DNA of 64,000 nucleotides, taken from the sequence record NZ_CP033968.1; one strand, written 5' to 3'. The notes beneath the pieces were generated by a model. That model was not told the origin of the DNA. It saw only the letters and a list, made by a program, of their open reading frames with translations, and ran no database searches. Positions 4,669-56,464 of the stretch are shown here, piece by piece (position 1 is the first letter of the stretch; each line of letters starts with the position of its first letter). This DNA is from a plasmid. The position numbers were made by a program, and so were the translations under genes.

Positions 4669-4785
4669 GTGACCCTCCTAGTAACACGTATGTATATTAT
4701 TGCTGGGGTTGATTGTATATGGATTGTCAAGTTTTGGGGAAGTTACCCCGGGGATGTGTGATACGACTGCGCTGTGTGAGAGCTC

Positions 4786-4821
4786 ATAAAAAAACTGGGC
4801 TCGCGTATCACGTGAGCCCAG
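4786..4821 (-). terminator. rho-independent terminator candidate for a leftward transcript
   Basis: The hairpin ctgggctcgcgtatcacgtgagcccag is preceded by an A7 run on the plus strand, which is a U-run after the stem on the minus-strand RNA. Confidence 0.4.
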
Positions 4822-5617
4822 TCTTGAGAACATCGAACGCCGTAGCATTCGACCAAAGGGTGCCGAGGCACCGTTTCAAGACTGGGCCCATAGCTTTACC
4901 TGATTGGATTCGTCGACAGCAGTACGACGTTTCTAGGCTAGGTGTGCCTTTGCGACTCCCCACCAGTATGCACATGGCCGCTGTGTGATGGACTTTGCGT
5001 CCGGGGATAGTCATTGGCGCTTGCTCCCGTAGGGGGGAGCACTTGAGGGTTTGTATCTCTACGACCCATTCCTCCGTTGGTTCCGTGCGGAATCACGTGT
5101 TGTCCAACGCTCGGGAGACACCCGGCGTGCGACAGTTGTCGGTTCTCAGCGAATCCAGTGACCGAAGTCACGTTCATCTAAGACATCGGCGTGCATAGCC
5201 GTCGTCGAGCACACAAAACAATCACGTGGGAGGCGTTGGGGAAAGATACGCTCAAGCGGTGATGGGGCATTGCGCTGGCCCGTCACCCTAGATGACTACA
5301 AGGGAGGCGTCGCTACCTCGGATCAGCCTGGTGTCTCCAGTTCCTGCATCCGTTGAACCTTGCCCTTGGTGATGTGCAACATCCGCGCATACAGGGACTG
5401 GGCGGGTATGCCGTGTGACCTCTCCTTCTCCTTCCTTTCCTTCCTGTGCTGCAGCCTGCCTGTTCCTATCTTGCTGGGAGGGTGAGACCAGACCCGATGG
5501 GGAAGGGTGTCCGCGCCCGACCACCCACCGAAGCCGACCGGGGACAGTTGCTAATTCATGTGACTCATCTCTCCAGAGTCAAACAACAGCGGCGCTGCCG
5601 CCCCCTAGGAGCTTTGG

Positions 5618-5887
5618 ATGGACACTAACGAAACTCACTCTGGCGAAACGCGAATCGAGCGCATCACTGGCGGCCACAATCGCGTTCTCGTGCTGCATAC
5701 CAAGGACTCGGAAACCACCATTGTCATTCCGCCTGGTGTCAACGAGCACGATTGGATGGGACTGGAAGCCGAGCGGAACAGGCGAGAGGCGGCAAGTCTC
5801 TTCGATCGAGCACAGCAGCTGGCGGCTCGTGCTAAGCGGCTGGATTTGGCCGCCGGCTTGTGCAAGCCGTCAAATCCGTCGAACTGA
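5618..5887 (+). CDS. hypothetical protein (89 aa)
   Basis: AGGAG lies 6 nt upstream of the ATG. Confidence 0.45.
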   Translation: MDTNETHSGETRIERITGGHNRVLVLHTKDSETTIVIPPGVNEHDWMGLEAERNRREAASLFDRAQQLAARAKRLDLAAGLCKPSNPSN

Positions 5888-6096
5888 ATGGGGATCGCCT
5901 CGGCGATCGCTCCTCCTGTAACCGTGGTGCCCACCGAGTACCCTCTCACGAGGTACCGGTGGGTTTTTCTTTTCAGGGGACTCAAATGGCTACCAACTGC
6001 ATGAACTCGCCTCCCGCTCCGGCGCCGCGGCATCACCGCCACATGGCGTGTCCAAGCACCAATGAGAAAGGCCCCTCAAAGAGGGGCCGGTGGGAG

Positions 6097-6324
6097 TTAG
6101 AAGCCTTGCTGGGCCATGAGAGACCTAACAAGGGCGGGGGCCACACTGACGATGATGCCAATCAGTGCCAGTTTGAAGCCCAGAGACTGAGCGTCCAGAC
6201 TGGCCACGAATGCGCGAAGGTGGAAGGCGACAAAGACGACCTTGTACATGAAGTCAAGAATCTCTTTGGCTACCCACCCTGCGATGTTCGCGCCGGCGAT
6301 GATGATTTGGACGAATTTGTCCAT
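6097..6324 (-). CDS. small two-TM membrane protein (75 aa)
   Basis: The internal start MDKFVQIIIAGANIAGWV has a GGAG 9 nt upstream and is followed by two hydrophobic segments. Confidence 0.4.
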   Translation of the reverse strand: MDKFVQIIIAGANIAGWVAKEILDFMYKVVFVAFHLRAFVASLDAQSLGFKLALIGIIVSVAPALVRSLMAQQGF

Positions 6325-6514
6325 TGGTGCTGCTCCACGCGAGAGGTTGGCCGGCTTGCGCCGGGTGCCCGGGAAATGGGCCACCCACCGGATCGGGGGT
6401 GAGAGCGGCCAGCTCGCTGGTCTGGCGTTCGATCAAACTACTGAACTGCTCTCTCGCGTATAGCTAGGACGATTTGGACGCCTGCATCCGAACCACATTC
6501 CTTCAATCGGCTTG

Positions 6515-6850
6515 TCAAACCTGGCCTGTAGCCGCCGTTCTCAGGTAGCCGGCGTGATACGGGGCGCAGCCCATAATCCAGCGGCCTTCTAGTTCGAGGT
6601 CGTAGTCCGAGAACGACGTTCCCGACGCATTGCATCTGGCCTCGTTCTCGATGACGGCATCGAGGCGGACAATCTCTGTCTCATTAAGCGGTCGAATGCC
6701 TGTCTGGCGGGAGCTGCTAGCCCAAGCCTTGTACTCGGGAGTACCGTGCTCGTCGAGCCAATCTCGATGCTTGAACATCTCCCTGTCCGTGGTGAAGCCG
6801 AGGGCGACCGCTTCGTCGCTGACGCCTGAAATTGCTGCTTTTCCTGTCAT
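6515..6850 (-). CDS. hypothetical protein (111 aa)
   Basis: AAGGAG lies 7 nt upstream of the ATG. Confidence 0.55.
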   Translation of the reverse strand: MTGKAAISGVSDEAVALGFTTDREMFKHRDWLDEHGTPEYKAWASSSRQTGIRPLNETEIVRLDAVIENEARCNASGTSFSDYDLELEGRWIMGCAPYHAGYLRTAATGQV

Positions 6851-7037
6851 TTCGTACTCCTTCGAGTTGAACCGTGCAAGCTGATATGCCGCACACGAAG
6901 GAAGAAGGGCGAGACCTGCTCCGGCAAAAAAAGCCCGCTCCGGATGAACCGGCAGCGGGCTGGGCGGGAGTCAACGGGTGTATTGTTAAAGCCGACCAAG
7001 TTCGACGCTGCCGGGCAGCGGCAAATCGGGGTGAGAC

Positions 7038-8061: not shown

Positions 8062-8098
8062 AGGAAAAAAATGAAAACGCCCCTTCGGAAAGGGGCGT
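8062..8098 (-). terminator. rho-independent terminator ending the leftward small-gene operon
   Basis: The hairpin acgccccttcggaaaggggcgt is followed on the minus-strand RNA by a uuuucauuuuuuu tract. Confidence 0.6.
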
Positions 8099-8110
8099 CA
8101 CAGCGGTTGA

Positions 8111-9954: not shown

Positions 9955-10059
9955 GGATCTCTCCTCTTGAAGGTTGGACTTGCATGAGGCAATGAGACAC
10001 AGGCAAGACTATGTGCCAGCGGAAAGGAAAACGCCCCTCACTGGCTGGCCAGGAGGGGC
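9952..10059 (-). repeat. copy 1 of a ~110-bp intergenic cassette (terminator hairpin + promoter-like segment + RBS + ATG)
   Basis: It is about 80% identical to 10729..10838. It has an identical 24-nt 5' end catggatctctcctcttgaaggtt and an identical hairpin cccctcactggctggccaggagggg with a T-rich tail on the minus strand. Confidence 0.6.
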
Positions 10060-11620: not shown

Positions 11621-11621
11621 C

Positions 11622-13589: not shown

Positions 13590-14180
13590 CTAGCCGAACA
13601 TGTCGCCAAGTTTTTCCAGTGCTTCGAGCGCTACGGGGTCGATGCTCTGGGGGCTCGCCGGCGCCGGATGCGCGGCTGGGACGGTTCCAGGGTTTGCGGC
13701 AACGGCAATGGCAGGGGGCACGATCGTGGCAGGCGTTTCCGCTTCCTCCATACCCTGCGCGAGAAGTGGTTGGATGGGCTCGACCACTGTTTCGCGCAAG
13801 GGTGGTGGTTGCTCCGCCGGCGCCTCTGCTACCGGAGACGGGGTAGCAGGACGGGCAGCCGGCCGGGCTGAAATTGCGCGGGGCTTCAGCACCCTGGCAG
13901 AGCGTCCCTTGGCGCCTCGGCGCACCTGCTTGTCGTGCGGTGCGGATTCGATGAGACCCCCGGGACCAGCCAGTGCCTCCTCAATGGCGTCATCCAATGT
14001 TCCTGCATCCCGGTGCTTGATGAACCACTGATACAGGACGCCCCGGATGAGAGGGGTTTCGGTCCGGTATGGCATTTCTGCGAGGAACTCCAGAGCCCCG
14101 GGGCAGGTTGCCTCCGCGATCACCAGGTTGATGCGCCGCTCCGGTTCGTCTGGGTCGAACACCCGGATGAGCTTAGGCAT
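13590..14180 (-). CDS. hypothetical protein immediately downstream of the parM-like gene; possible ParR-type adaptor
   Basis: The assignment rests on position in a parMR-like arrangement only. There is no motif evidence, and the C-terminal half is Pro/Ala-rich. Confidence 0.45.
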   Translation of the reverse strand: MPKLIRVFDPDEPERRINLVIAEATCPGALEFLAEMPYRTETPLIRGVLYQWFIKHRDAGTLDDAIEEALAGPGGLIESAPHDKQVRRGAKGRSARVLKPRAISARPAARPATPSPVAEAPAEQPPPLRETVVEPIQPLLAQGMEEAETPATIVPPAIAVAANPGTVPAAHPAPASPQSIDPVALEALEKLGDMFG

Positions 14181-15201: not shown

Positions 15202-15436
15202 GAAATTCTCACAGTGCAGAGTCGAAAAGGCCCCGCAACCGGGGCCGGCCACCGATGCGCAATCCGCTGTGCGCAATGTGTACTGCTCATTGTTCACTGC
15301 AGATACCGCACCTGTTACGCGTCCGCATTTTAGAATACATAACACGTATTGACAAGACGACTGTAGCGAACGGAGAATTGCCCCCCCGGGGTTGTTTACG
15401 CAATGTGATAAGCAACCCCCAAAGGACGCTTAATAC
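15202..15436. promoter_or_regulatory. divergent control region upstream of parM; candidate centromere/promoter
   Basis: It contains direct repeats of GCGCAATGTG/ACGCAATGTGA, two G/C hairpins, and the AACACGTATTGACAAG motif. Confidence 0.35.
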
Positions 15437-15961: not shown

Positions 15962-17522
15962 GCTAAGCGGGATCAATGCCGACCAAGGCCCTGGTGCAGA
16001 GACTGTGCCGGGGCTTTTTCTTTATGGGTAGCGAGTGTCTCGGCCGGGCCGGATATTGGGCGAAGATTGGATTGAGGCGGACGTAGAGGAGATAGCTGCC
16101 AGGCGGAGGTCCTGTGGGGAGTCGGGATTTCTGCCACGCGGGGTATTGGGCGGAGGGAGTCCTGGGCTCTGTGCGATGGGAGACGGGACTGGCTCTGGCG
16201 GGATCTCGGGTTTGGCCTGTTCTGCGGCTTTGCGTAGTGCGCTGTTCTGCGGGCGGGTGGATGGGCTGGTTGTCTCACTCTGCCGACCGGTGGTCGTTCT
16301 CTCGCCTGCGCGGGTGTCCGCCTTGTTCCCTTGTTCTCTCTCTGTCCGATTGGGCGGCCGGTGGTCCTGTGCTTGTTGCGGTGGGGCGGGGAGGTAGCCG
16401 GCGATGGCTTGGTGCGGAGTGAGCTTGGGCGCGGAGTGAGAACTTCGGTTGGCGGTGGCTTGGGTTTGGTGTCCCTCGGCGGCCCGTGGTCCGCCGGAGG
16501 CTTTGGTGTCGCCGGCGCATCAGCGCGGGCCCCGTGAGGGGCTATGGTTCTGCCGACGGGATAACTATTTGTCCTGCCGGGGCTCGTTCTGGTGGTGTGC
16601 GGGCTGGGCTTGTGCGCCCTCCTGCGTCGGGGTTGTTGCGCCGCCGTGAGCATAACCATTTGTCCTCTTCCTTCCTTGTGTCGCCGCGGGATCTCGCTCC
16701 CTGTTCTTCCTGAGAGCCGGGTGCGCTGCTGCTGTCCTGCTGCCGGGGCGGGATTGGGCTGCTCCTTCTTGCCCGGTCATCTCTCACCGGAACTGTGGAT
16801 GGGATCGAATGGATCTAATGGATGAAGGGGAGGGGCGGCCGGTGTCGTTCTGCCGATGGCGTGTCGGGGAGCCGGGTGGATCTGTCGGCGGGGCGGAGGT
16901 CTTGGGCTGGGGTGGTTGTTCTGCTGGCGTGGGAATGGTGCTGGTGGTGGATGGTTGTGGCGCTGGGTGGCTGGTTCTGTCGGCGGGGGATCGGGTGGAG
17001 CGGCGTTGTGCTGGCGGGAGACTGATGGTGTTGGTTCTGAGAGTGGCGGCGGTGCGGTGGTGGTGTCAGGCGGAGTGAGAAGTTTCGCTGGCGATGGTGC
17101 GAGAGAAGTCGGGTATGAGCTCGGATCGAGTGGGGCTGGTGTATCGGCAGGCGATGGCGTGGGTGAAGTCGGGTATGGGCGGGGCGGGGGCGGGAGATTG
17201 GCTGGCGATGGCGTGTTGCGGTGTGGTTGTTGGGCAGGCGGTTGTTTTGGCCGTGTGGGGGAGGGCTGGCGTACCTGGTGCCGTAGCCGCCGGCGCCGTG
17301 GGGGCGACGCCCGGCGAAGCCGGGCTGGGGTGTTGCCCCGGGGTAAATGTTTGGCCGGAGGGCTTCTCTTGGGCGCTCCCCTGTGGGTAAATGGTTGCCC
17401 CTGCTACCGGGTTCTATGACCGGCGTCGGTGAGTAAATGCTTGGCCGTTGCTGTTTCGCTGGTCTGGGTGCGGTGTATGTTGGTGTTGCTCTACCCATGC
17501 GTAACACGTATGCATAATTTGC
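15962..17522 (+). repeat. ~1.5 kb non-coding GT-skewed repeat-rich tract
   Basis: The top strand is roughly 50% G, 30% T, 13% C and 5% A. Imperfect direct repeats include GCGATGG(C/T)G at least 5 times, gttctg(c/t)(c/g)g at least 6 times, ATAAC(T/C)ATTTGTCCT twice and GTAAATGNTTG(G)CC four times. Only low-complexity P/R/H- or G/W-rich ORFs occur in any frame. Confidence 0.55.
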
Positions 17523-17551
17523 TTGATTGATCTAAGTACTGTGCGTATGAT
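17523..17551 (+). promoter_or_regulatory. sigma70-like promoter for the membrane/helicase operon
   Basis: TTGATT and TATGAT are separated by 17 bp, just after the AACACGTAT motif. Confidence 0.45.
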
Positions 17552-17588
17552 GGGTATAAATGGTTGGCCACATATGAAGGGGTATGAG

Positions 17589-17893: not shown

Positions 17894-19687
17894 ATGAGCA
17901 AGGCTACGCACGAACAACTTACCGCGATCAACAGCGCCGTCCGTCGCCTGGTGGTCCAGGCCTGCCCGGGTGCCGGCAAGACGTTCACCCTGAGGGAGTA
18001 CGCCCTGGTGCGTCCCTCGGAGCGCATCCTGTACCTCACCTACACGAAGTCTCTCCAGACTGAAGCCGAGGGCAAGTTCCCCCAGAACGTCGAATGCCGC
18101 ACCACTCACTCCCTTGCGTGGTCGTTCGGCCGTCGCTTCAAGGACGCCGGTAAGCTGGGCGACCTGCGCCCGAGCGACTTCGCCCGCGCCTTCGGCATCG
18201 AGATCGGCTTTGCCAGTATCCTGGTGACGACTGTCACGAGCTTTCTGTTCTCCGCGGATACCGACTTCGAGCCGCACCATGTGCCGGACACGATCGCCGA
18301 GGCAGATGTCGCTGAGACCCTGAAGTGGGGCCGGCTCGCTTGGGAGGCCATGCAGGATCTCGGCCGCAAGAACGTTCCCATGCCCCATGACGGCTATCTC
18401 AAGCTGTTCCAGCTTTCGAAGCCGGACCTGTCGCGTCGCTACGATCGCATCCTGTTCGACGAAGGCCAGGACGCCAACCCGGTCACGACCTCGATCGTTC
18501 TTGCCCAGAATTGCCCTGTGGTGATCGTCGGCGACCGGTATCAGGCGATCTTTGCCTTCCGGGGTGCCGTCAATGCCATGGACATGATCCAACCGGATGA
18601 AACGGTCTACCTCACCCAGAGCCATCGCTTCGGCCCTGGCATTGCCCGGCTGGCCACGATGCTCCTCTCCGCGTTCCGCGGCGAAGAGCGACCTGTGTAC
18701 AGTGCCTTCCCGGATCGGCCGACTGGCTACACGGTCGACGTTTCCAAGCCGTACGCGGTCATCGGCCGCACGAACGCCAAGCTGTTCGACAAGGCTGTCG
18801 CCATGCTGGGCAACAAGCGTCTGCACTTTGTCGGTGGGCTCAGTAATTACCCATTTGACAAGTTGGTGGACGTTTGGAACCTGATGAGCGGCCAGCCGGC
18901 CGCCGTCAAGGACCAGTTGCTCAAGACCTTTGGTTCGCTGGAGAAGCTCGAGGAGTACGCGACGGGCGTTGACGACAAGGAGATTCTCTCCCTGATCGGT
19001 GTGGTGAAGGAGTACCGCAGCGCGATCCCGTCGCTGGTCGAGAGGATCAAGGCGGAAGCAGTGGAACAAGCAGAGCACGCTGACGTTCTGCTCTCGACGG
19101 CCCATCGTGCGAAGGGTCTCGAATTCAGCCAGGTACTGCTGCTCGACGACTTTGAAGACTTCGTCACGGCCAATGGCGAGCTGCTGACTCTGGATACGCC
19201 CGAACTGGTCCAGGAACTGCACCTGCTGTTCGTGGCACTCACCCGAGCCGAGGACGTTATCGAGCTCAACGCCCAGATGCAGGACATCATCGCGATCCTA
19301 GGGGATCGCGTGCCTGAAGCTCAGCCAACCCCGGGCGAGAGGAGCACCGAACAAGTGGGGGAGCAGCTTGGCCAGATTCCGGGTTTTGATTACGTGCCGG
19401 TTGTGTATACGTGTGATGTAGCGGAAAATGTCACACGTGAACAAAAGGCACCGGTGGTCGCGCTGGCGCAAGTGCCGGTTGGTGCTGGCACTGACATTGA
19501 GAAATCGGTGGAGCTGGCGATCCTCCGGCAAGGCCTCCTCCACGTTCCGCGGCTGGCGCAAGAGGTTGGCGTGAGCCGCGAGGTGATGGCGGATGTCATC
19601 GTCGAGATGATCCGGAAGGGCCTGCTGGCCGAGTCGCTCTTCCTGGGTAGCCCGGAAGTAGTCAGCCGGCTGCGGGTGGCTGCGTGA
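17894..19687 (+). CDS. SF1 UvrD/Rep-like DNA helicase
   Basis: It carries Walker A GAGKT, a DEGQD box and QSHRFG, and is UvrD-like throughout. AAAGGGG lies 8 nt upstream of the ATG at 17894; the track ORF from 17681 overlaps the previous gene. Confidence 0.8.
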   Translation: MSKATHEQLTAINSAVRRLVVQACPGAGKTFTLREYALVRPSERILYLTYTKSLQTEAEGKFPQNVECRTTHSLAWSFGRRFKDAGKLGDLRPSDFARAFGIEIGFASILVTTVTSFLFSADTDFEPHHVPDTIAEADVAETLKWGRLAWEAMQDLGRKNVPMPHDGYLKLFQLSKPDLSRRYDRILFDEGQDANPVTTSIVLAQNCPVVIVGDRYQAIFAFRGAVNAMDMIQPDETVYLTQSHRFGPGIARLATMLLSAFRGEERPVYSAFPDRPTGYTVDVSKPYAVIGRTNAKLFDKAVAMLGNKRLHFVGGLSNYPFDKLVDVWNLMSGQPAAVKDQLLKTFGSLEKLEEYATGVDDKEILSLIGVVKEYRSAIPSLVERIKAEAVEQAEHADVLLSTAHRAKGLEFSQVLLLDDFEDFVTANGELLTLDTPELVQELHLLFVALTRAEDVIELNAQMQDIIAILGDRVPEAQPTPGERSTEQVGEQLGQIPGFDYVPVVYTCDVAENVTREQKAPVVALAQVPVGAGTDIEKSVELAILRQGLLHVPRLAQEVGVSREVMADVIVEMIRKGLLAESLFLGSPEVVSRLRVAA

Positions 19688-23100: not shown

Positions 23101-23469
23101 ATGGCCAAAGACGATTTCATCCGCATCAAGTACACCCGCGAAGTCGACGGGCGCAAGAAGCGCAGCTCGGTTTCCGTGGACCCAGACCTCTTCGAGATCT
23201 TTGCGAAGATCCGCGGCACTGTTCCGGCAGCTCGCGCAGTGCTGCGTGAATGGGCGGTTGCGGTCGACGCGGACCGCCAGTGGCAGGATGGCCTGGGTGT
23301 CGATGGCGGCATCGGCCTTTCTCGCATGGTGCAGAGGCGGATGTTCTCCGAGATCAACACGTTCGTCGACAAGGGCATGGTGGTGATCCAGAAGGAGGAT
23401 GCGGATCTGCATCCGAACGCCCCGCGTCCGACAAGGAGCGCGGCCCGCCGGCGGAGTGTCTCAGCCTGA
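23101..23469 (+). CDS. hypothetical protein (122 aa)
   Basis: GGGAG lies upstream. Confidence 0.5.
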   Translation: MAKDDFIRIKYTREVDGRKKRSSVSVDPDLFEIFAKIRGTVPAARAVLREWAVAVDADRQWQDGLGVDGGIGLSRMVQRRMFSEINTFVDKGMVVIQKEDADLHPNAPRPTRSAARRRSVSA

Positions 23470-23484: not shown

Positions 23485-23513
23485 TTGACAACATTTACCA
23501 CTCACGTATTATA
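23485..23513 (+). promoter_or_regulatory. strong sigma70-like promoter for the long rightward operon
   Basis: TTGACA and TATTAT are separated by 17 bp. ACGTAT overlaps the -10, and ATACGTGTTATTA lies just downstream. Confidence 0.5.
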
Positions 23514-23549
23514 CATACGTGTTATTAATCTATTTTCAGGATTGCGGCG

Positions 23550-26140: not shown

Positions 26141-26198
26141 CTAGCCGCACAGTCCCGATAAACTACCTAAGTCCGCTAACTGATTCCCCTTTCAACGT

Positions 26199-27020
26199 AT
26201 GCATACGTGTAATGTAGCGAATAGTGGTCAACAAGCGGCGCCGGTGCAGGGTCCAGTGGATTTGGATGCGACCAGGCGCGATGCCGCCAATCTTCCGCCC
26301 GAATGGCAAAGCGGGGTGATTGCCCTGGCGGAAGAACTGGCTGGGGCACGAGCCTTGATCGAGAACTCGAGCAAGGATGCGGTTGACGCTGCCGCGTATC
26401 GTCGAATCAATACCCCGGAAGTGGCGCACTTCGTGCACGCTTCGTACAACGAGGCGATGCACCAGCGATTGCGCTGGGGGCCTGCGCACGACATGGCCAA
26501 GTCCAATGAGGACTGGTATGCGCTCCTGGGTTACCTCGCCGGCAAGGCGCAACAGCCTGACATCCCGCTCGATAAGCGCCTCCACCATGTCATCGCGACG
26601 TCCGCGGCCTGCTTTAACTGGCACGGGGTCCTGACGGGCAGTTGGTCGGACCGTGAAGCCGCCGATGCCCTCGAGCGAGCGCGGACCCAACCCCGAGGCC
26701 CCATCCAACACTCCCTGAAATGTGACAGTGAAGTCTTCAACGCCGTTGCGGACGGGCGGAAGACGCATGAGATCCGGTTCGACGACCGTGATTACAGGCT
26801 AGGTGACGTACTGCTCCTCAAGGAGACTGTCTACTCCGCTGCGGAAATGCAGACCGGAGCACCGGTGCTCTTCACAGGGCAGGAGATCTGGCGAGTCGTC
26901 TCGCACGTGCTGACGGGATACGGCCTTTTCCCGGGTTGGGTTTGCCTCTCCCTTGAGTCCCCGAACACAAAGCGGGCCGCGCTGGGCCCGGACACCGCAG
27001 CGAATTCACCGGAGGCTTGA
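26199..27020 (+). CDS. ASCH (PUA-like) domain protein; the start is uncertain
   Basis: The C-terminus EVFNAVADGRKTHEIRFDDRDYRLGDVLLLKE resembles an ASCH domain. The first ATG lies inside the ACGTATGCATACGTG motif. Confidence 0.55.
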   Translation: MHTCNVANSGQQAAPVQGPVDLDATRRDAANLPPEWQSGVIALAEELAGARALIENSSKDAVDAAAYRRINTPEVAHFVHASYNEAMHQRLRWGPAHDMAKSNEDWYALLGYLAGKAQQPDIPLDKRLHHVIATSAACFNWHGVLTGSWSDREAADALERARTQPRGPIQHSLKCDSEVFNAVADGRKTHEIRFDDRDYRLGDVLLLKETVYSAAEMQTGAPVLFTGQEIWRVVSHVLTGYGLFPGWVCLSLESPNTKRAALGPDTAANSPEA

Positions 27021-27694: not shown

Positions 27695-29106
27695 CCCGAG
27701 CACCAGTAGTCGTCGGCTCGTCCGCCGCGATAGCGGCCATTGCGTACGCCGTCAAAGCCGACGAAGGCCTTACGTTCTTGCGCTGCTGGCAGCACGGCGA
27801 CTTCGACGAAATTCGGGCCGATTGGCCTGATGCCCCTGAAGCGGTGTTCATCGGCGCCGAGGCGTTCTCGCCGGCGACTGCTGGCCGGAGCGATTTGGCC
27901 CAGGAGCGATCGGCGTTTGCGGAGCAAGTCATCGCGATTCTGGAGGGTAGCGCATCTGCCTGGGACGAAATGCTGGCCGGCGAACCTGACGAGGTTGTCC
28001 GGGATCGGATGCGTGCGCGATCGAATGAGAACCGGGGGAACATCGAGCGCATCCGGATGCTGCTGTCGGAGCCGGGTACTCCGGCGCCGCATAGCAATTG
28101 TCCGATACCGGTAGATGCCACGGAAGCCAAAGAGCGCGAGCAGGTGGGATGCGCGCACTACGGGACGGGGGTGTATGCCGCGGGGCTGGCCCGTGCGGCG
28201 GACATCGCGGAAAGCACCTGCTCTCAAAGCCGCAACCATCTTTTCCGAAGCGCCGCAAAGATCATCGCCGGGAAGATCCGTGCAGAGTCGCCAGAGCCGG
28301 CGCCACGCGCAGGGGACGCCATGCTGCAGGCCTTCAATGCATCGGGCCTCAAGCCGTCGGCGGGGAATCGCAGGGCCTTCCGTGCCGGGTTTGTCGCCGC
28401 CGCTCCACCACCAGTCGTTTGGGATGGGCAACCGGCCGAGACTATTCTCTACTGGGCAGAGGCGTACTCCGGAAACGGGTTTGGTGGCGGGCACGGCATG
28501 GTCGTCAAGCTCCTGAACGAGTATGCGGATCTATGCGAGCTTGTTGCCGCGTTCGGTGCCTCGATTCGCCTTGCGCCATTCCAATGGCGTGTTCAGCCCT
28601 GGATGCTCGAGTGCTTCGGCGCGAAGATCGCCGCGGATCGCGCAGAGCGCAACCATCGCTTCTATGAAGAGGCAACCGAGCTCGTACAAGCCAACGGCAT
28701 GACATGCAGCGAAGCCCATCAGCTGGTCGACTACACGTTCGGCCGCCCGCCCGGTGAACTGAAACAGGAGATCGGGGGTGTGATGGTGACTCTCGCTGCT
28801 CTGTGCCTCGCAAGCGGCGCGGACATGCACCTGGCAGGCGAAACTGAACTGGCCAGGATCTGGACCATCGTCGAGAAGATTCGCGCGAAGCAGGCTGCAA
28901 AGCCGAAGCACTCGCCGCTTCCAGAGTACGTCCCAGCCGCGGTCTCGATGGATCGCTCCCTAAGCGATCGCATTTCACAGATCGCAATGGAAGCCGACGC
29001 AGCAGCGAACCTCGGTGGCAACCACCACCTAGCAACCACGCTAGGTGATATCAGTGAGCGGCTTCTGATGCTTGTCCATGCGTTGGAAGTACCAGCCAAA
29101 CAGTAA
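27691..29106 (+). CDS. protein with a C-terminal MazG-like nucleotide pyrophosphohydrolase domain
   Basis: FYEEATELV...EIGGVMVTLAALC is the EExxE-type MazG signature. GAGGAGG lies upstream, and the start overlaps the upstream stop. Confidence 0.6.
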   Translation: MTRAPVVVGSSAAIAAIAYAVKADEGLTFLRCWQHGDFDEIRADWPDAPEAVFIGAEAFSPATAGRSDLAQERSAFAEQVIAILEGSASAWDEMLAGEPDEVVRDRMRARSNENRGNIERIRMLLSEPGTPAPHSNCPIPVDATEAKEREQVGCAHYGTGVYAAGLARAADIAESTCSQSRNHLFRSAAKIIAGKIRAESPEPAPRAGDAMLQAFNASGLKPSAGNRRAFRAGFVAAAPPPVVWDGQPAETILYWAEAYSGNGFGGGHGMVVKLLNEYADLCELVAAFGASIRLAPFQWRVQPWMLECFGAKIAADRAERNHRFYEEATELVQANGMTCSEAHQLVDYTFGRPPGELKQEIGGVMVTLAALCLASGADMHLAGETELARIWTIVEKIRAKQAAKPKHSPLPEYVPAAVSMDRSLSDRISQIAMEADAAANLGGNHHLATTLGDISERLLMLVHALEVPAKQ

Positions 29107-32582: not shown

Positions 32583-33760
32583 GCAAGGGTAGCAAGATCG
32601 AGTGGACGGACCATACATTCAATGCCTGGCTCGGTTGCGAGCCTGTCAGCCCTGGCTGCGATCATTGCTACGCGGAAGTATCGACGCCAGTTCGCGTGCT
32701 GGGCGTGAAGTTTGGCACGAGGCAGCCGCGTCACCGGACATCCGCTGAGAATTGGAAGCAGCCCCTGCGCTGGGAACGAGAGCACGCGCAGTTCTATGAA
32801 GAGCACGGGCGCCGGCAGCGGGTGTTCAGCGCGAGTCTTTCAGATTGGCTAGACAATGCAGTGCCGATCGAATGGCTGGTGGATCTGCTTGACCTGGTGC
32901 GCAGGACGCCCAGTCTAGATTGGCTCCTGCTGACCAAGCGCATCGGCAACTTCAAGAAGCGGCTGGCAGAAGCCAGCGACTACGTTTGGAACAGCGGCGC
33001 CGGCGCTATCGCTGACGCGGGTTCATTGCGCGAGTGGATCGATGCATGGCGTACCGGACCCCCCCCTGAGAACGTCTTCGTCGGTGCCACCATTGTCAAT
33101 CAGGCAGAAGCGGATCGCGACATCTCGAAGTTGCTCGAGGTGCCGGCATACGTCCGGTTCCTTTCGATGGAGCCGCTACTAGCCCCAGTCGATATCAGTG
33201 ACTTCCTGACCCCGAGCTATCCGAACTGCGAAACCGGATTCGCCCAAGGCGAACGGATGGAGGTCGGGTATTGCGGCACGTGCGCCGGCCACGTCAGCGA
33301 CCCGATTCACAACCCAGCGATGCGTGACTTCGTCGACTGGGTGATCGTTGGCTGCGAGAGCGGGCCCTACGCAAGGCCAGCGCACCCGGATTGGGTAAGG
33401 AGCTTGAGGGACCAATGCGTAGCCGCCGGCGTCGCCTTCCTGTTTAAGCAGTGGGGTGAATGGTTGCCGTGGGATCATTTCAACGCTGCGCGAATCGACG
33501 ACAGTTTGGAGAGCACGCGATACGCCACGATGGAATGGAAGGGCGATCGCTGGGAAGACGTCGGACACCCCATCTGGTCTGATTCTGTCGACGGCATAAT
33601 TGATGACAGGCACTGTATGGGGCGCGTCGGGAAGAAGGCCGCGGGTCGCTTGCTCGACGGGAAACTCTACGACGGATTCCCGGTCGCAGGCGCACAACGA
33701 GTGCGACGTTCGTCGGCGCTGACCACTGGCGCGGCCGTGAGTTGCCTTGGATACGCATAA
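32579..33760 (+). CDS. phage Gp37/Gp68 family protein (PF07505/DUF5131)
   Basis: The N-terminus KIEWTDHTFNAWLGCEPVSPGCDHCYA is the family signature. The start overlaps the upstream stop (ATGA). Confidence 0.8.
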   Translation: MSKGSKIEWTDHTFNAWLGCEPVSPGCDHCYAEVSTPVRVLGVKFGTRQPRHRTSAENWKQPLRWEREHAQFYEEHGRRQRVFSASLSDWLDNAVPIEWLVDLLDLVRRTPSLDWLLLTKRIGNFKKRLAEASDYVWNSGAGAIADAGSLREWIDAWRTGPPPENVFVGATIVNQAEADRDISKLLEVPAYVRFLSMEPLLAPVDISDFLTPSYPNCETGFAQGERMEVGYCGTCAGHVSDPIHNPAMRDFVDWVIVGCESGPYARPAHPDWVRSLRDQCVAAGVAFLFKQWGEWLPWDHFNAARIDDSLESTRYATMEWKGDRWEDVGHPIWSDSVDGIIDDRHCMGRVGKKAAGRLLDGKLYDGFPVAGAQRVRRSSALTTGAAVSCLGYA

Positions 33761-33766
33761 CGCGTA

Positions 33767-33795
33767 TTGATAAACACACTGTTTGCTTGTTATAG
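33767..33795 (+). promoter_or_regulatory. candidate promoter after the AACGCGTAT motif
   Basis: TTGATA and TTATAG are separated by 17 bp. Confidence 0.35.
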
Positions 33796-35955: not shown

Positions 35956-36690
35956 ATGAGCACAAGCCGGGCTACTCGCCGAGATCCTATGGCAGACGTC
36001 ATGCCACTCGAGCTTCTGGAAGTGGCGCATCTGCTGATCAGTAGAGGTCAGAATGAACTCTACTGGGAAAGAGTTCCCCTCCCGAAGCGACCGGTCGGCC
36101 AGGTCCGCTACGAAGTGGCTCGCCAGGCAGCGACCTTTGTTGTGCCATTGGTAGGTCTAACCTGCGCCGCGCAGATCTACGGGGCAACTGGCTTGCTGCT
36201 TGGGCTGCCGCTTGCATGGCTAGGCGGCTACTTCTTGGATCTGCAACTCAAGTCTGCGATTGGGAAGAAGAAGATTCGTGATGACATGATTGACGCTGGC
36301 CGCTACAAGGCGGTGGGCTGGCTGGCTGCGCAGATGGGTATGCGCCCAGACGAGATCACACTGGCGACGATCCGGAAGATGAACAAGGATTACGTCATTG
36401 TTAAGGCGCGTATGGACCTGGAGTTGGCTCGCCGCGAGGAAGCCCGCAAGGCCGCTCACGTACGGCAGTCGCCGTCCTCCGATGATGTGCATCATGATTA
36501 CACTCCGGGGGTAGTCGCTGCCGCCGGATTGGGTGCGGCAACCGCCTACACGTCAGTAGACGAAGATGACGACTACTATGATCGAGGCCAATCCTACTCG
36601 CCGGCCGTGAACCCTGCTAACGGGATGCCGATGGTTGCTGGCACCTATGTGGACGTCAACGGCAATATGTTTGGAACTGACACGTTCTGA
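35956..36690 (+). CDS. membrane protein (244 aa)
   Basis: An ORF with 2-3 TM segments. Confidence 0.55.
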   Translation: MSTSRATRRDPMADVMPLELLEVAHLLISRGQNELYWERVPLPKRPVGQVRYEVARQAATFVVPLVGLTCAAQIYGATGLLLGLPLAWLGGYFLDLQLKSAIGKKKIRDDMIDAGRYKAVGWLAAQMGMRPDEITLATIRKMNKDYVIVKARMDLELARREEARKAAHVRQSPSSDDVHHDYTPGVVAAAGLGAATAYTSVDEDDDYYDRGQSYSPAVNPANGMPMVAGTYVDVNGNMFGTDTF

Positions 36691-38442: not shown

Positions 38443-39061
38443 GTTTCTCCTGTGTTGAGTTAAGCACCTGGGAACCCCAGGGCTCCAAGCCTCCTTGCAT
38501 AGACCTGGCAACACAGGAATGCGCAACGCCTGGGGATAAGTTGGGGTGGTGCCTCAATGGACGTCGCCGGCCGGCCGATAGACAGAAGACCATTCAGTAG
38601 AACGTGAGCGTCACCGCCAACGAGTTGCTGCAGGATTTGGACCCGCTCGGCCCGCAGCGGCTGCTTGCCACCTTCGCACGATTTGCTGTCATCTTGACAA
38701 ATAGCACTCAATCGAACAAGATGCATAACATGTAGGTATATGCGTTGAGTATAGCAATAGCGATATTTGCTCAGTCGACAGGGCCATGCGGAAATGTTGC
38801 GGCGCATGTTGAGCGCCGGCGATGGTGTAGTCATCCTCCGCATCACCGGGGATCTCGAGCGGCATCATCCGAATGTTGAGATCTTCGAAGGTTGGGAGGG
38901 CTATCAGCGATTCTTGGCGCCAATCCTGCGCAGCGGGAAGCTTCAGAAGGGCGATGGGAGTACGCTGCTTTAACTGCATCGAGTTCGTTTTTGCGGCACG
39001 ACACGGAATTGCTCACGTTTGCGGCACTGATCAACGACGCTTGGGCATAGAAATCGCAACC

Positions 39062-41569: not shown

Positions 41570-42016
41570 TCACTGGCAGCGCGTATCAGTGCGCTTGACC
41601 ATCTCTCTCAACTCATCCCGAACGTGCTCCGGGAGTGTTACGCCGCTTGCCATCCTGAGGAATGCCGCTCGATGTGCTCGCGACCGAGAACACAAGGCTT
41701 CCAGCTTTGTGAATGCCTCGCGTGATACGCGATAGCTTTTGGTCTCGCGAAAGACCAGGCTCAAACAAAAATCAAGAATTGACACGCGCTTGCGCAGGAA
41801 GACCGCGACGATCACGTGATCTCGGGCCTCGCGCTCCTCTGGCGGTATGGCCCCTACGCGGACGTAGTCAATCGGCTCGGTGATGTACTCCTCATCAAGC
41901 GGCGTAGCCATATGGCGAGTCGTACGGCCACCCACGTTGAAGGTATAGTCAGGATCGAATGGTTCTTGTGCGTATTCCCAGGATGGACGTGGGATCGCGG
42001 TGCCTGGATACGTCAT
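41570..42016 (-). CDS. hypothetical protein (148 aa)
   Basis: It is coupled to the upstream gene stop. Confidence 0.5.
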   Translation of the reverse strand: MTYPGTAIPRPSWEYAQEPFDPDYTFNVGGRTTRHMATPLDEEYITEPIDYVRVGAIPPEEREARDHVIVAVFLRKRVSILDFCLSLVFRETKSYRVSREAFTKLEALCSRSRAHRAAFLRMASGVTLPEHVRDELREMVKRTDTRCQ

Positions 42017-52945: not shown

Positions 52946-53073
52946 TTTCCCCTCCGAAGGCGAGCGCAACGCACTCGGGTACTACCGGCTCCCGGCCGGT
53001 GCGGTGTGCTCCAATACAGGCACAGCGAATACAATACGCGTATTGTTACCTGTTATTGTAAATTTCGTCAAGT

Positions 53074-53358: not shown

Positions 53359-53384
53359 GGGTACCGTCCTCGCCCAGGGGCAGC

Positions 53385-53681
53385 CTAGGGCGTTGGTGGA
53401 TTCTTGGCCTTCATGACGGCCATGTGCGCAGCGACTGCTTCATCCTTGAGAACGATCACGATCGGGCCCTCTCGGAAGTCGCCACTCATGGTCCCGTGCA
53501 GGGCGTCCTGTTCGTCCTCGGTGAGATTGCGCCATTTCGCAATCCAGTCGACTTTCCCGAAGAGCAACCCGGACGGCCCGGTGGCACATGACTGCCCCAC
53601 TGATATACCGTTCTCGCGGCACCATGCGCGGGCCGCTTCTAGCGCGCCCCATGTGCCTTGCTGGCAGAATTCGATTTGCAT
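53385..53681 (-). CDS. hypothetical protein (98 aa)
   Basis: ORF only. Confidence 0.45.
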   Translation of the reverse strand: MQIEFCQQGTWGALEAARAWCRENGISVGQSCATGPSGLLFGKVDWIAKWRNLTEDEQDALHGTMSGDFREGPIVIVLKDEAVAAHMAVMKAKNPPTP

Positions 53682-53742
53682 GTGACTTGATCAATCCGAA
53701 AGAGATTCACACTTCCAACGTCTGCGCGACATAGCAACGATC

Positions 53743-54021
53743 TCAGTCGCCAAGGCTCTCGATGCAATAGGGGCGATTCTCATTGCCCGGGAGATTCCAG
53801 TCCCACGCTGAAACCTTGGCGCTGCAACCAGCAACAGGACATTCCAAAGGAGAAAGGTCGCGCGCACGGTCTATGGGCTCTGCCTGGATCGAGAGGCTCA
53901 ACGGCTGGCCATGTACTGGGCACAATCCACGTTCCAGTCTCCACAAGCGTTGTAGGTCAACGGGTAGTCGCCGCTTGCTCCGCGCATCAGCCGCCAGGAA
54001 CGACGAGAAATCCCCGGTCAT
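53743..54021 (-). CDS. hypothetical Cys-containing protein (92 aa)
   Basis: ORF only. Confidence 0.4.
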   Translation of the reverse strand: MTGDFSSFLAADARSKRRLPVDLQRLWRLERGLCPVHGQPLSLSIQAEPIDRARDLSPLECPVAGCSAKVSAWDWNLPGNENRPYCIESLGD

Positions 54022-54206
54022 TTACTTGCCTTCGCTTCCAAGAACAACGCGGCATCGGAAAAGGCTCTTGCAGCCGCCCCAACAGAGTTCGCATAGCGGT
54101 CAAACCCCAACTCGCGTAACTTGGCTGCTTTCTCTTCGGCGTCATACGCTTGGCGCCACAGGCCTTTAGTGAGCCGGGATACCGATGGTTTCTTACGTTG
54201 TTTCAT
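54018..54206 (-). CDS. small basic protein (62 aa)
   Basis: GAGGGG lies upstream of the internal ATG (MKQRKKPSV). Confidence 0.4.
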   Translation of the reverse strand: MKQRKKPSVSRLTKGLWRQAYDAEEKAAKLRELGFDRYANSVGAAARAFSDAALFLEAKASK

Positions 54207-54280
54207 GTCGCCCCTCAGTCGTGTTTGGCGTTGGAATTCACGGAGATGGTTGTGCCCGCGACAACGCGTCAAAAGGTGGT

Positions 54281-55720
54281 TCAAGCGAACGGAGCGTCGA
54301 TCGGCATCTTCCTGAGCAACGTTGTGGTCAGCGAGAAATAACCCCCCTCCAGGCGCGGGGCGTAGTCACGCACCCATTGCGCTGCGAGAGGCGAGCGGAG
54401 CGCGGCCTCGACTCGATCAAGCACGCCAGGCTCACCGCACACGATGCTCAGGTTGTGGTTGATCGGCAGAATGCCGGGCGGGACGCGCACGGCCTTAGGC
54501 GACGTGGCGATCCGCGGCACGAGCAATGTCTCGCGGGACAGATCCATGCGGTGAAAGGTCTCCGGCGGTAGCCAGAAGGTACCCCGCCGGCCCCGTGCCG
54601 CCATCTTGTGCATATGGCGCTGCAAGTGCTCAATCAGGCGATTGCACGGCGTCACACCAGGCGCCGTCCTGATGGCGAATCGCCGCGGCGTGCAAAGGCG
54701 GCCGTCGACAATGTCATCGGTGTCGACCGCTGGCACCAGGTACTCGCCCGGCAGCGTCGCGGCCGTTTCTTTGTCCACCACAAAGATCCCGGAAGAGCCG
54801 AGCCATGGTGCGATGCGTACCTGGGCGAACTGTTCCAGCGTTGGAAGGCCTTCATAACGGCTTTCGTCGACGCCTGGATAGATTGGCCGCTCCGTAAGCA
54901 CGCGAAAATCGTGCGAACGCTGCGGAGGCTCGGCCGTCGCCTTCAGCACGACAGACACAGGGTGAACCCGCGGGGGCGTGCCCGAGCGACGGTTCTTCGG
55001 GCGATAGAACACCGAGCTTGAATCCAACCGTTCAAGGTGGGAAATGGCAAGCCGGGTCCCTAAGGTCGCGCGAAGTTCCGCGGCCCCGGCATTCAGGAGC
55101 CAACGATCGGCAGTTACAAACCCGATCTGACCATCCGGATGAATGGCACGACTGCAACGCTCCAGGAAGCTATGCAGAAGATCTTTCGCAGCGAAATCCG
55201 GGACATGGCCGGAATAGAGGTCCTGCAGAACGGGCGGGACGTTGACCCAGCGCAGGTAGGGCGGATTGCCGGCGACAACGTGATAGACGGCCGTTTGCGG
55301 CCCGTCAGTCAGGAAATCCCGGTTATGGACCATCGACTCGGCCACTTTGGTGGCAGTCGCGTGGTCATAGCCATGTCGGCACAGCGTAGCTGCGACACGT
55401 GCACGCGCCTCGATGCACGCGCCTGCGTGCACCTCCCAGCCCTCGACTTGCGCCAGCAGACTGGCGCTTGTTAGGCGCGAGTGCTTGCTGGCTGCAAGGA
55501 GCTTTCCAAGGGCACGCTCAAGGAACATGCCGTCACCGCAGCTCGGGTCGACCAGCCGGCGCCCATCCCGAGGCCAGTCAAGCCGCCCAAGGAGTTGGTC
55601 CACCACCGGCCCCGCGGTATAGATCGCCGTCGCCTGGTGCAGTCGCTCAACCGCTTCTGCTCGAGCCTGATCAATTTGGCTGTGCTGTGACTGCCGATAC
55701 TCAGTGATTTCGGTCTGCAT
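54281..55720 (-). CDS. N6-adenine DNA methyltransferase (gamma-class; N-terminal catalytic domain followed by a long TRD-like region)
   Basis: Motif I is DPSCGDGMFL and motif IV is GNPPY. The start is the internal ATG (MQTEITEY) with GGGAAA upstream; the track begins at a GTG at 55849. Confidence 0.8.
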   Translation of the reverse strand: MQTEITEYRQSQHSQIDQARAEAVERLHQATAIYTAGPVVDQLLGRLDWPRDGRRLVDPSCGDGMFLERALGKLLAASKHSRLTSASLLAQVEGWEVHAGACIEARARVAATLCRHGYDHATATKVAESMVHNRDFLTDGPQTAVYHVVAGNPPYLRWVNVPPVLQDLYSGHVPDFAAKDLLHSFLERCSRAIHPDGQIGFVTADRWLLNAGAAELRATLGTRLAISHLERLDSSSVFYRPKNRRSGTPPRVHPVSVVLKATAEPPQRSHDFRVLTERPIYPGVDESRYEGLPTLEQFAQVRIAPWLGSSGIFVVDKETAATLPGEYLVPAVDTDDIVDGRLCTPRRFAIRTAPGVTPCNRLIEHLQRHMHKMAARGRRGTFWLPPETFHRMDLSRETLLVPRIATSPKAVRVPPGILPINHNLSIVCGEPGVLDRVEAALRSPLAAQWVRDYAPRLEGGYFSLTTTLLRKMPIDAPFA

Positions 55721-56095
55721 TGTGTTTCCCGGAGGGCCGGGCGGATCTCCCGCCCGGTGCATTCCTGTTGCGTTAGGAAGCCTTATCGGCATCGGCGAAT
55801 GGCTCCGGCACGGCTTCATAGCGGTGCGCTTGACCTCGGAGTGCGGCACCTTGGTTCCCGCAGCTCACGAGTGTCTGTGCCAAGTTTGGGTCTAGGACGT
55901 CGTCACGAACCAACACGCGCTCGCCATTCGCTTCGATAAGCCAGATTTCGTACACGTAGTGCGCCCCCTCTCTCTATGCAGAGCTCTGGCAAGGACAAAA
56001 CGATCAGCCGACAGGCCGGTGGATGTCTGCCGCTCTCACTCTGGCGACGATTTTGCGTATGATATAGTATAGATACGTGTTACGTATCGAAGCGT

Positions 56096-56464
56096 ATGTA
56101 TTCGACGACATCACTACCGCCCATGAACCAACTAGTCAGTGAACCAGCGCCACCACAGACGGTGGAATCCGAGGCCCTCTTCCTGTGTGGTGAGGCGTTC
56201 ATGCAGATTCGCAAGCTCAGCGGGATCGTGGCAGAGCCAAAGCCTCGCCGCGGCGTTTTCGGACGATTTTCCCCAACTGATCGGGGTGCGGCGGATCGCC
56301 GTTCCAGGGCCGCCGCGTTGATCTACGAGCTTTCCGACGTCGCCCACAACCTGCCCGAGATGGTGAGGCTGGGGGTGCATACCAAACAGTTCGCCTACTT
56401 CTCTCAGCAAACGAACAAGCTTGCGGGGGCGCTAGTAGAGGCACGCAGCCTAGCGAGGATTTGA
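56096..56464 (+). CDS. hypothetical protein (122 aa)
   Basis: The first ORF after an AT-rich promoter-like island, with no clear RBS. Confidence 0.4.
   Translation: MYSTTSLPPMNQLVSEPAPPQTVESEALFLCGEAFMQIRKLSGIVAEPKPRRGVFGRFSPTDRGAADRRSRAAALIYELSDVAHNLPEMVRLGVHTKQFAYFSQQTNKLAGALVEARSLARI

Follow-up and report, generated by a model that had tools for sequence, protein, structure and literature searches.

A 20-bp DNA motif recurs on promoters within a 64,000-nucleotide stretch of plasmid record NZ_CP033968.1 (the window, at its full length); this DNA represents a megaplasmid backbone of the Cupriavidus metallidurans pMOL30 type. The motif is conserved among related megaplasmids, is restricted on pMOL30 itself to backbone DNA, and overlaps mapped transcription start sites (TSSs). 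It is probably the operator of a transcriptional repressor encoded by the backbone of the pMOL30/pBVIE01/IncpSTY plasmid family, the likeliest binder being a 282-residue helix-turn-helix (HTH) protein encoded near the right end of the window.

A 20-bp Motif Recurs in the Window

A preliminary description, made from the letters alone, had reported a recurring 9–10-mer containing ACGTAT in intergenic AT-rich islands at the start of most transcription units. The motif was found at all eight of the sites listed there, and its enrichment is clear. AACRCGTAT is present in 6 copies in the window compared with 0.35 expected, a count that none of 100 dinucleotide shuffles reached, and in an unbiased k-mer count ACACGTAT was the second most enriched intergenic 8-mer (6 copies versus 0.31 expected), with a single copy in 45.6 kb of coding DNA. 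The bare ACGTAT word, however, is only ∼2-fold enriched (20 versus 9.6), and the true unit is a sequence of ∼20 bp with the consensus ATACAT-AAC-RCGTAT-nn-ATA and an invariant 9-bp center, TAAC(A/G)CGTA. The 20-mer can be parsed into three half-sites resembling ATACGT that alternate in orientation, of which the central one is invariant. The partial palindromy noted previously was confirmed in ACGTATGCATACGT at 26195–26208 and in the dyad ATACGT-AAC-ACGTAT of the site at 56068.

A position weight matrix (PWM) trained on seven window sites, with leave-one-out scores of 22–32 bits, recovered three sites on which it had not been trained, at 38721 (23 bits), 19402 (19 bits), and 53029 (17 bits). 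The first two were absent from the earlier list, and the third corresponds to the site placed there at 53033. In total, ten window sites score at least 16 bits (17–35 bits), compared with 0.39 expected at 10 bits or more from a Markov background; nine are located in intergenic regions and one at an intragenic promoter. The surrounding patches are moderately AT-rich (GC content 0.38–0.53 within ±40 bp). The association with most transcription units was overstated: a site is found in the scanned upstream gap of 11 of 53 candidate unit starts; among the 13 gaps of 200 bp or longer, 7 have one when site 33753, just outside the scan, is counted. The window contains one short tandem array, unrelated to the motif, and no tandem array of the motif itself. 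The literature searched does not mention the sequence as a regulatory or binding site, and this instance of the system appears to be undescribed.

The ten sites are as follows.

4677..4696, plus strand: CCTAGTAACACGTATGTATA, 30 bits; 9–28 nt upstream of the start codon of a minus-strand gene for a 224-residue protein (3994–4668), just beyond the minus-strand terminator of a conserved non-coding element
15335..15354, plus strand: ATACATAACACGTATTGACA, 31 bits; intergenic region between parM and the divergent gene for a 174-residue protein
17497..17516, plus strand: ATGCGTAACACGTATGCATA, 33 bits; upstream of the operon formed by an 89-residue open reading frame (ORF) and the UvrD-like helicase gene
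19402..19421, minus strand: CTACATCACACGTATACACA (motif strand), 19 bits; within the helicase gene, in its 3′ part
23510..23529, minus strand: ATTAATAACACGTATGTATA, 35 bits, the strongest in the window; a partial inverted copy at 23503–23509
26198..26217, minus strand: CTACATTACACGTATGCATA, 30 bits; upstream of the DUF3850 gene, taking in the palindrome described above
33753..33772, plus strand: ACGCATAACGCGTATTGATA, 28 bits; at the end of a Gp37/Gp68-family gene
38721..38740, plus strand: ATGCATAACATGTAGGTATA, 23 bits
53029..53048, strand unassigned: AATACGCGTATT core, palindromic and weaker, 17 bits; between two minus-strand genes
56068..56087, minus strand: ATACGTAACACGTATCTATA, 33 bits; a perfect 6-3-6 dyad heading the operon 56123–58734, in which the HTH gene is last, and divergent from an N6-methylase gene

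Motif Sites Coincide with Mapped Transcription Starts

The whole of pMOL30 contains 14 sites of at least 12 bits, all 14 of which are in backbone segments, with none in the ∼160 kb that the czc, pbr, mer, sil, and cop metal-resistance islands take up. This partly answers the question, raised in the preliminary description, of whether the motif is more frequent than expected from AT-rich intergenic DNA of the host chromosome. Ten of the sites fall in the first 40 kb of the backbone, three at 131–136 kb, where the DsbC-traW-traU-trbC genes follow directly, and a single one at 207.6 kb. Overlapping inverted pairs are found at 36153/36165 and 131333/131345.

A total of 5,763 primary 5′ ends has been mapped in strain CH34 (Grosse et al. 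2022, PMC9045368) by Cappable-seq, which enriches 5′-triphosphate RNA and in which the suffix 4 denotes pMOL30 (PMC13492112). These data, in the coordinates of NC_007971.2, were set against the ten motif sites that fall within the first 45 kb. A TSS lies inside the motif at four of the ten sites (0.27 expected by random placement, P = 1.5e-4) and no more than 45 nt from it at six (0.59 expected, P < 5e-5). The four internal starts are:

TSS 9976, in site 9967–9986
TSS 19137, in site 19126–19145
TSS 23533, in site 23524–23543
TSS 36162, in site 36153–36172

TSSs 18269 and 38587 are found 11–16 nt past the edge of a motif and the helicase-operon TSS, 16390, 42 nt past it. No TSS was recorded in unchallenged cells at the tra-proximal sites 131333, 136275, and 207602.

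Every motif-associated TSS has a sigma-70-type −35/−10 pair, with the spacing of RpoD promoters (hexamers 16–18 bp apart, ending 5–9 nt before the mapped 5′ end). For TSS 16390 the spacer is that given by a simple −35/−10 scorer.

TSS 23533: TTGACA-N17-CAAGAT-N7-A
TSS 36162: TTGGCA-N17-TATGAT-N7-G
TSS 38587: TTGACG-N17-TAGCAT-N7-G
TSS 19137: TTGACA-N17-ATTATA-N6-G
TSS 18269: TTGTGT-N17-GAAAAT-N7-G
TSS 16390: TTGATT-N17-TATGAT

Of eight TSSs beside motif sites, five were scored as strong RpoD starts and three as ‘ba’/‘sba’ (PMC9045368). The register of the motif relative to these promoters differs: it occupies the spacer at 18269 and 38587, positions −9 to +11 at 9976, 23533, and 36162, and positions −11 to +9 at 19137, and it may be on either strand relative to transcription. 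Such variation in register and orientation relative to +1 is the behavior of an operator and not of a promoter element.

Four of the mapped starts can be transferred to the window, where the scorer reproduces them (17558, 19437, 23521, and 38730) to within 2 nt. The start of the helicase operon is:

17558, plus strand: mapped TSS (pMOL30 TSS_16390+4, score 265, class ‘s’), in the last TAAATGGTTGGC repeat

Site 19402 spans −34 to −15 of an internal plus-strand promoter, TTGTGT-N17-GAAAAT, whose pMOL30 start 18269 corresponds to window position 19437. Site 23510 covers approximately −11 to +9 of TTGACA-N16/17-TATTAT/ATTATA (TSS_19137+4, score 84, class ‘s’, window 23521), and site 38721 covers −9 to +11 of TTGACA-N17-CAAGAT (TSS_23533+4, score 273, window 38730). 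The scorer also predicts overlapping promoters at most of the remaining window sites. At 15335, the minus strand carries a near-consensus predicted parM promoter, TTGTCA-N17-TAAAAT (the −10 is TAGAAT in Burkholderia), with the motif core as its spacer, and the plus strand a predicted TTGACA-N18-GAGAAT. The final six bases of site 33753 form the −35 of a predicted promoter TTGATA-N18-TATAGT, site 53029 spans −13 to +6 of a predicted minus-strand promoter TTGACG-N18-AACAAT, and site 56068 spans −9 to +10 of a predicted plus-strand promoter. At site 4677, the sigma-70 pairs predicted on the two strands are weak.

The Motif Is Conserved in Related Megaplasmids

Helicase loci of related plasmids were collected by plasmid tblastn, and a helicase search of genome contigs gave two loci. 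The gene order around the locus is fixed (an RDD gene, a hypothetical gene, ParM, the divergent gene for a protein of ∼175 residues, a gap of 1.6–2.3 kb, a small ORF, and the helicase) and is syntenic in six relatives: Burkholderia sp. YI23 byi_2p, Caballeronia grimmiae p2, Burkholderia sp. M701 pM7012, Cupriavidus sp. TMH.W2, Pseudomonas aeruginosa pHN39-SIM, and Methylibium petroleiphilum RPME01. The Cupriavidus PWM found high-scoring sites at orthologous positions in all six, and the hosts of the motif-bearing plasmids belong to two proteobacterial classes. The Pseudomonas members belong to IncpSTY, a group in which carriers of blaVIM and blaSIM are found.

The parM-side 20-mer, ATACATAACACGTATTGACA, is identical in seven loci (the window, L003, L004, L006, L008, and the metagenome loci L019 and L025), beside ParM proteins that are 48–74% identical and helicases that are 41–66% identical. 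A side-by-side comparison of orthologous sites showed the 20-mer intact while its flanks diverge. Site 4677 has orthologues at 6721 in L003, 7726 in L004, and 12942 in L008, and even the intragenic site 19402 is kept in position and orientation (21492 in L003 and L004, 11512 in L006, and 21626 in L007). When 60 distinct sites were pooled, the consensus became ATACAT-AAC-RCGTAT-nn-ATA(C/A)(G/T), with the information falling to background directly outside columns −6 to 14. Collectively, the conservation at orthologous sites across classes and the coincidence with mapped pMOL30 starts support the earlier proposal of a shared cis-regulatory element located on promoters. Sharp boundaries, deep conservation, restriction to the backbone, and overlap with ordinary promoters in several registers are the features of a global repressor's operator; we infer that a protein binds the motif and that repression is the effect.

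A Three-module HTH Protein Is the Candidate Regulator

The preliminary description had offered the HTH protein as one possible binder.

57886..58734, plus strand: candidate regulator WP_111734073.1, 282 residues in three modules (Pfam, AlphaFold, Foldseek, and family alignment)

The protein consists of an N-terminal helical module, a Cro/CI-type HTH domain at approximately residues 86–171, and a C-terminal module of three or four helices. Its only Pfam match above the cut-off is PF07022 (Phage_CI_repr; 26.9 bits against a cut-off of 22), HTH_3 falling marginally below (22.9 against 23); no other family matched, and no peptidase S24 (LexA-like) C-terminal domain was detected by Pfam. Among the 30 window proteins covered by Pfam scans, this is the only clear DNA-binding domain. 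In the AlphaFold model, residues 86–171 have a predicted local distance difference test (pLDDT) score of ∼90 and the C-terminal helical domain (residues 198–250) is also confident. Foldseek gave target-normalized template-modeling (TM) scores of 0.64–0.70 to 434 Cro, C.AhdI, SinR, and ImmR, with weak E-values for the whole model, and the HTH domain superposes on 434 Cro, P22 C2, C.AhdI, and SinR. Profile and fold together place the protein in the Cro/CI (XRE, HTH_3) family.

A family of 38 clusters, all of similar length, was found among 5.8 billion proteins, and the clusters with a named source come from Cupriavidus, Ralstonia, Burkholderia, Caballeronia, and Pseudomonas. In PLSDB the protein is encoded on exactly 25 megaplasmids from these genera, all of this plasmid family. 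The family alignment shows three conserved modules separated by variable Pro/Ala linkers. The region of the recognition helix, QFSxWRTGK, is nearly invariant from Cupriavidus to Pseudomonas at an overall identity of 36–41%, which parallels the invariance of the DNA motif; visual inspection of the site lists gave no clear pattern of covariation between motif variants and recognition-helix variants. The HTH gene, or a DUF2726-HTH operon, has a motif site ahead of it in each of the six lineages examined; five of them share the antisense orientation of the site, and P. koreensis has an overlapping plus/minus pair. The equivalent of site 56068 is found upstream of HTH or DUF2726-HTH genes in L008, L010, L011, L012, and L013.

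The C-terminal module (approximately residues 190–260; pLDDT ∼85) carries the pattern GxKW(S/T)xEEDxxL...HRRSxxAILxRL over its three to four helices and resembles a Myb/SANT repeat, with a weak profile match to MYB21 (E = 0.34). A second DNA-reading module would be unusual in a bacterial Cro/CI-type repressor. The Foldseek results for the whole model are dominated by the HTH domain, and the Myb/SANT identity is unconfirmed.

Alternative Explanations

Several observations weigh against the view that the HTH protein is the binder or that the motif is a simple operator. pMOL30 has no HTH homologue (best tblastn E = 0.3) and keeps its 14 sites, having also lost the parM module and using ParAB; in M. 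petroleiphilum RPME01 no HTH orthologue is detectable and good sites are again kept. These absences may reflect secondary loss, but they would fit a different binder equally well. The site before the HTH operon is weak evidence of autoregulation because sites are frequent at the starts of backbone units. The ACGT cores of the half-sites are separated by 8, 10, or 13 bp, which is unusual for a simple dimer. Finally, site 17497 spans −61 to −42 of the mapped promoter TTGATT-N17-TATGAT, outside the core promoter, and no convincing promoter was predicted by the scorer at site 26198. The HTH protein is accordingly a reasonable candidate, by virtue of its family, its recognition helix, and its upstream sites, rather than an established binder, with two motif-bearing plasmids lacking it. 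Loss of the HTH gene from pMOL30, which fits a recent event, would explain the active motif promoters there; because these promoters are active in its absence, the HTH protein, if it is the binder, is more likely a repressor than an activator.

The operator could instead be read by another backbone protein, of 122 residues (23101–23469), 174 residues (WP_017511114.1, 15437–15961, divergent from parM), or 196 residues (encoded downstream of parM), a reading that we consider unlikely overall.

23101..23469, plus strand: rival binder, basic protein of 122 residues (WP_011229295.1), isoelectric point 10.2, present in every lineage including pMOL30 (Rmet_6047)

All three proteins are conserved in six of six helicase loci, Methylibium included, and the most invariant site of all is in the promoter region of parM and the 174-residue gene. 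The 122-residue protein is retained by pMOL30, which keeps its sites without the HTH protein; its gene ends 41 bp before 23510, the strongest window site, and its N terminus, a β-strand followed by two helices (a β-hairpin and helices in the model), is reminiscent of ribbon-helix-helix proteins. On the other hand, none of the three has a Pfam DNA-binding domain, the model of the 122-residue protein has no significant Foldseek match, the pMOL30 promoter directly downstream of Rmet_6047 is active despite Rmet_6047 expression, and pMOL30 has kept its sites while losing the parM module, the 174- and 196-residue genes included. A ribbon-helix-helix assignment for the 122-residue protein was considered and was not confirmed; its secondary structure is compatible, with nothing significant from Foldseek.

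The sites might also be dispersed centromere-like or partition sites of the ParM system, bound by an adaptor and doubling as silencers in the manner of KorB/ParB of RK2 or sopC of N15. The best conserved site is in the parM promoter, exactly where parC would be expected, and a putative adaptor gene (13590–14180) is conserved wherever parM is. Type II parC regions, however, are arrays of many direct repeats beside parM; because the 235-bp region upstream of parM holds a single copy, the motif is not a parC array. The 14 sites of pMOL30, moreover, persist on active promoters after loss of the parM module, and the four-copy TAAATGnTTGSC cluster at 17344–17568 is a better parC or iteron candidate, all of which makes a partition role very improbable. 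A host-encoded regulator as the reader of the motif appears just as remote. It would be in line with the breadth of hosts and with the persistence of the motif on plasmids lacking the HTH protein, but it is at odds with the absence of sites from the ∼160 kb of accessory DNA in the same cell, and to our knowledge the motif resembles no well-known proteobacterial global-regulator consensus. H-NS and MvaT nucleation sites are degenerate, AT-rich, curved DNA with no long invariant core, and the 20-bp motif, with its CG-containing center conserved across classes, appears unlike them; an H-NS-like protein had been another of the binders suggested, but none of the present results points to H-NS.

The preliminary description had further allowed for a promoter class read by a dedicated factor, which could be a special sigma factor, a polymerase, or an activator. 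The length of ∼20 bp is that of phage-polymerase promoters, the TSS is always at position 10 of the 20-mer at three plus-oriented pMOL30 sites, and three window sites have activator-like positions (−50 to −31 twice and −61 to −42 once). Nevertheless, the sigma-70-like hexamers at every associated TSS, most of which the authors of the TSS map scored as RpoD-type (PMC9045368), the varying register and strand, and the firing of motif promoters in CH34, whose pMOL30 lacks the HTH protein, speak against this proposal. No sigma factor or RNA polymerase was found in the Pfam scans of the 30 window proteins, and we regard a dedicated factor as highly unlikely.

Comparison with Known Repressor Systems

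With many copies at backbone promoters, overlapping the core promoter or the TSS, the motif has the arrangement of a dispersed-operator regulon under a putative global plasmid repressor, and four known systems were used for comparison. In the KorA/KorB system of IncP-1 plasmids (RK2/RP4), many operator copies likewise sit on the sigma-70 promoters of backbone operons (replication, partition, transfer, and ‘kil’-type), the regulator genes are themselves operator-controlled, and the operator classes at −10, at −35, or further upstream show a spread of registers comparable to that found here. The IncP-1 operators are OA (GTTTAGCTAAAC) and OB (TTTAGCSGCTAAA). These sequences differ from the motif, the candidate regulator is a three-module Cro/CI-type HTH protein and not a KorA or ParB homologue, and the plasmid families are unrelated. 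The C1 repressor of the plasmid-prophage P1 also acts alone on more than a dozen dispersed, largely asymmetric operators of ∼17 bp that overlap promoters, on a large extrachromosomal element rich in phage-type DNA-metabolism genes, and its overlapping inverted operator pairs have counterparts in the two inverted pairs of pMOL30. There is, however, no similarity of operator or protein, and the present element is a conjugative megaplasmid (MPF_F). Pfam, together with a comparison of operators, places the candidate outside the KorA, KorB(ParB), and C1 families.

The omega regulator of inc18 plasmids (pSM19035) resembles the present system in acting as one global regulator through short half-sites that vary in number, spacing, and orientation and precede promoters for copy control, partition, and stability, but it is a ribbon-helix-helix protein of Firmicutes acting on 7-bp WATCACW repeats, in contrast to a 20-bp composite with an invariant 9-bp center. 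For want of homology in both the operator sequences and the candidate protein, the system lies outside the KorA/KorB, C1, and omega families. Lambda-type CI and Cro repressors resemble the candidate in fold, given the Phage_CI_repr match of its central domain and the superposition of that domain on 434 Cro and P22 C2; their operators overlap promoters as well, and motif positions near −41 would permit CI-like activation. The candidate differs in having no detected S24 domain and in its additional N-terminal and C-terminal, Myb/SANT-like, modules, and its putative operators are dispersed over more than 50 kb instead of being clustered in an immunity region.

Proposed Mechanism and Implications

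In the operator model, the HTH protein would bind the alternating ATACGT-like half-sites as a dimer or higher oligomer and control its own expression. Its operators would lie on the sigma-70-type promoters of parM and the divergent gene, the helicase operon, blocks of small genes of unknown function, and its own operon, and on pMOL30 also ahead of the F-type transfer genes. The operator would fill the −35/−10 spacer at some promoters, cover the −10 and +1 at others, or abut the −35, and from these positions a bound protein would block RNA polymerase binding or open-complex formation. At the sites centered near −41 (two) and −52 (one), it could contact the polymerase, as lambda CI does.

The operator defines a regulon and predicts co-regulated promoters. 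The literature characterizes the backbone of ∼60 kb common to pMOL30, pBVIE01, and their related megaplasmids as largely enigmatic, and the IncpSTY papers name only rep, par, and tra markers for these plasmids. One sharply defined operator would provide an experimental handle on the control of this backbone. As the same word is present in the Pseudomonas blaVIM and blaSIM megaplasmids, plasmid maintenance and transfer could potentially be influenced through the regulator. In the model strain CH34, pMOL30 is suggested to be a regulator-less and possibly derepressed derivative, and it may be a constitutively derepressed form of the larger BS1-type plasmid. Global plasmid repressors with dispersed operators are well established, and the advance is thus a new instance rather than a new principle.

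A bolder extension, which we put forward tentatively and consider doubtful, is that a three-module repressor combining the Cro/CI HTH with a Myb/SANT-like DNA-reading module recognizes the 20-bp operator and, in resident cells, silences a phage-like ‘establishment’ regulon of ∼60 kb that undergoes zygotic induction on conjugative entry. The regulon would comprise nucleases, the helicase, methylases, the ParM system, the DUF2726 nuclease, and genes beside the transfer region; in a newly entered cell free of repressor, all of these genes would fire together and then shut down. If so, the switch would be common to beta- and gammaproteobacterial megaplasmids, carbapenemase-carrying IncpSTY plasmids included, and repressor-less derivatives such as pMOL30 would run the regulon constitutively.

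Gene Content and Neighboring Non-coding Elements

The window is 99.95–100% identical per aligned segment, in reverse orientation, to plasmid p1 of strain BS1 (NZ_CP037902.1, 364 kb), which is typed MOBP/MPF_F by MOB-suite, and some parts are common to pMOL30 of strain CH34. Its GC content is 59.6%, and not 64% as stated previously. Several segments of 1.3–3.9 kb of NZ_CP037902.1, two IS66 copies among them, are missing from the window, with junctions at the following positions.

41765–41772: junction of a missing segment
57488–57495: junction of a missing segment
59409–59415: junction of a missing segment
61559–61569: junction of a missing segment
62423: junction of a missing segment

Given the 99.9–100% identity elsewhere, these absences indicate that the window comes from a relative poorer in insertion sequences (IS) or from a different assembly.

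RefSeq coding sequences, the majority of them ‘hypothetical’, were placed on the window by exact sequence. The recognizable products are ParM, VRR-NUC, a non-specific endonuclease, RDD, the UvrD-like helicase, DUF3850, Gp37/Gp68, GNAT, AbiEi/Eii, VapBC, GIY-YIG, DsbD_N, the N6-methylase, DUF2726, and the one Cro/CI-type HTH protein; none of the window genes annotated or scanned was seen to encode a phage structural protein. Proteins of 917 residues (29176–31929) and 442 residues (27778–29106) have no Pfam match. The former has Ala/Pro-rich linkers and a C-terminal segment that is winged-helix-like by eye; it was considered as a single-subunit RNA polymerase and rejected, given the lack of a Pfam hit, the low-complexity Ala/Pro linkers, and the absence of polymerase motifs.

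To the right of site 4677, a non-coding element of ∼560 nt occupies 4788–5370 on the minus strand. Its DNA is 79% identical to Burkholderia/Caballeronia and ∼74% to Pseudomonas counterparts, exceeding the flanking protein genes. Read on the minus strand, it finishes just short of the site with an intrinsic terminator, CTGGGCTC-loop-GAGCCCAG-T7 (4788–4830). A pattern scan of metagenomes gave six complete and two truncated homologues; four of the 12 matches (L021, L023, L026, and L028) were due to chance and were discarded. The consensus fold of the minus strand has 108 pairs in 21 helices, with 96% of cells paired, and 21 pairs show double-sided changes compared with 9.1 ± 2.0 in shuffles (0 of 500 reaching this number) and 0–5 with slid partners. 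Rfam gave no match in the window, nor in 4600–5700 at E ≤ 1. By its predicted fold, based on only about five lineages, the element may be a large structured RNA of these megaplasmids and is a candidate for a new one.

The unbiased k-mer count also revealed a second family of enriched intergenic words, ACGCAATG, CAATGAGA, and CTCATTGC, with 5 copies each compared with ∼0.4 expected, for example near 15395–15405. Upstream of the helicase operon, 15962–17588 is a region of 1.6 kb without a credible ORF, with a GC skew of 0.28, an AT skew of −0.5, and a G+T-rich plus strand. A gene-free gap of 1.6–2.3 kb between the parM-divergent gene and the helicase operon, with conserved DNA patches, is present in nearly all relatives, and the YI23 record annotates a 351-residue hypothetical protein within it. 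The TAAATGnTTGSC cluster mentioned above consists of four exact copies spaced by 44, 46, and 123 bp, where ∼1 chance match is expected, and the last copy covers the mapped helicase-operon TSS at 17558. It is possibly an iteron, a parC-like site, or a second operator; the four-copy cluster is kept in Burkholderia YI23 and Caballeronia, and other relatives have one or two copies.

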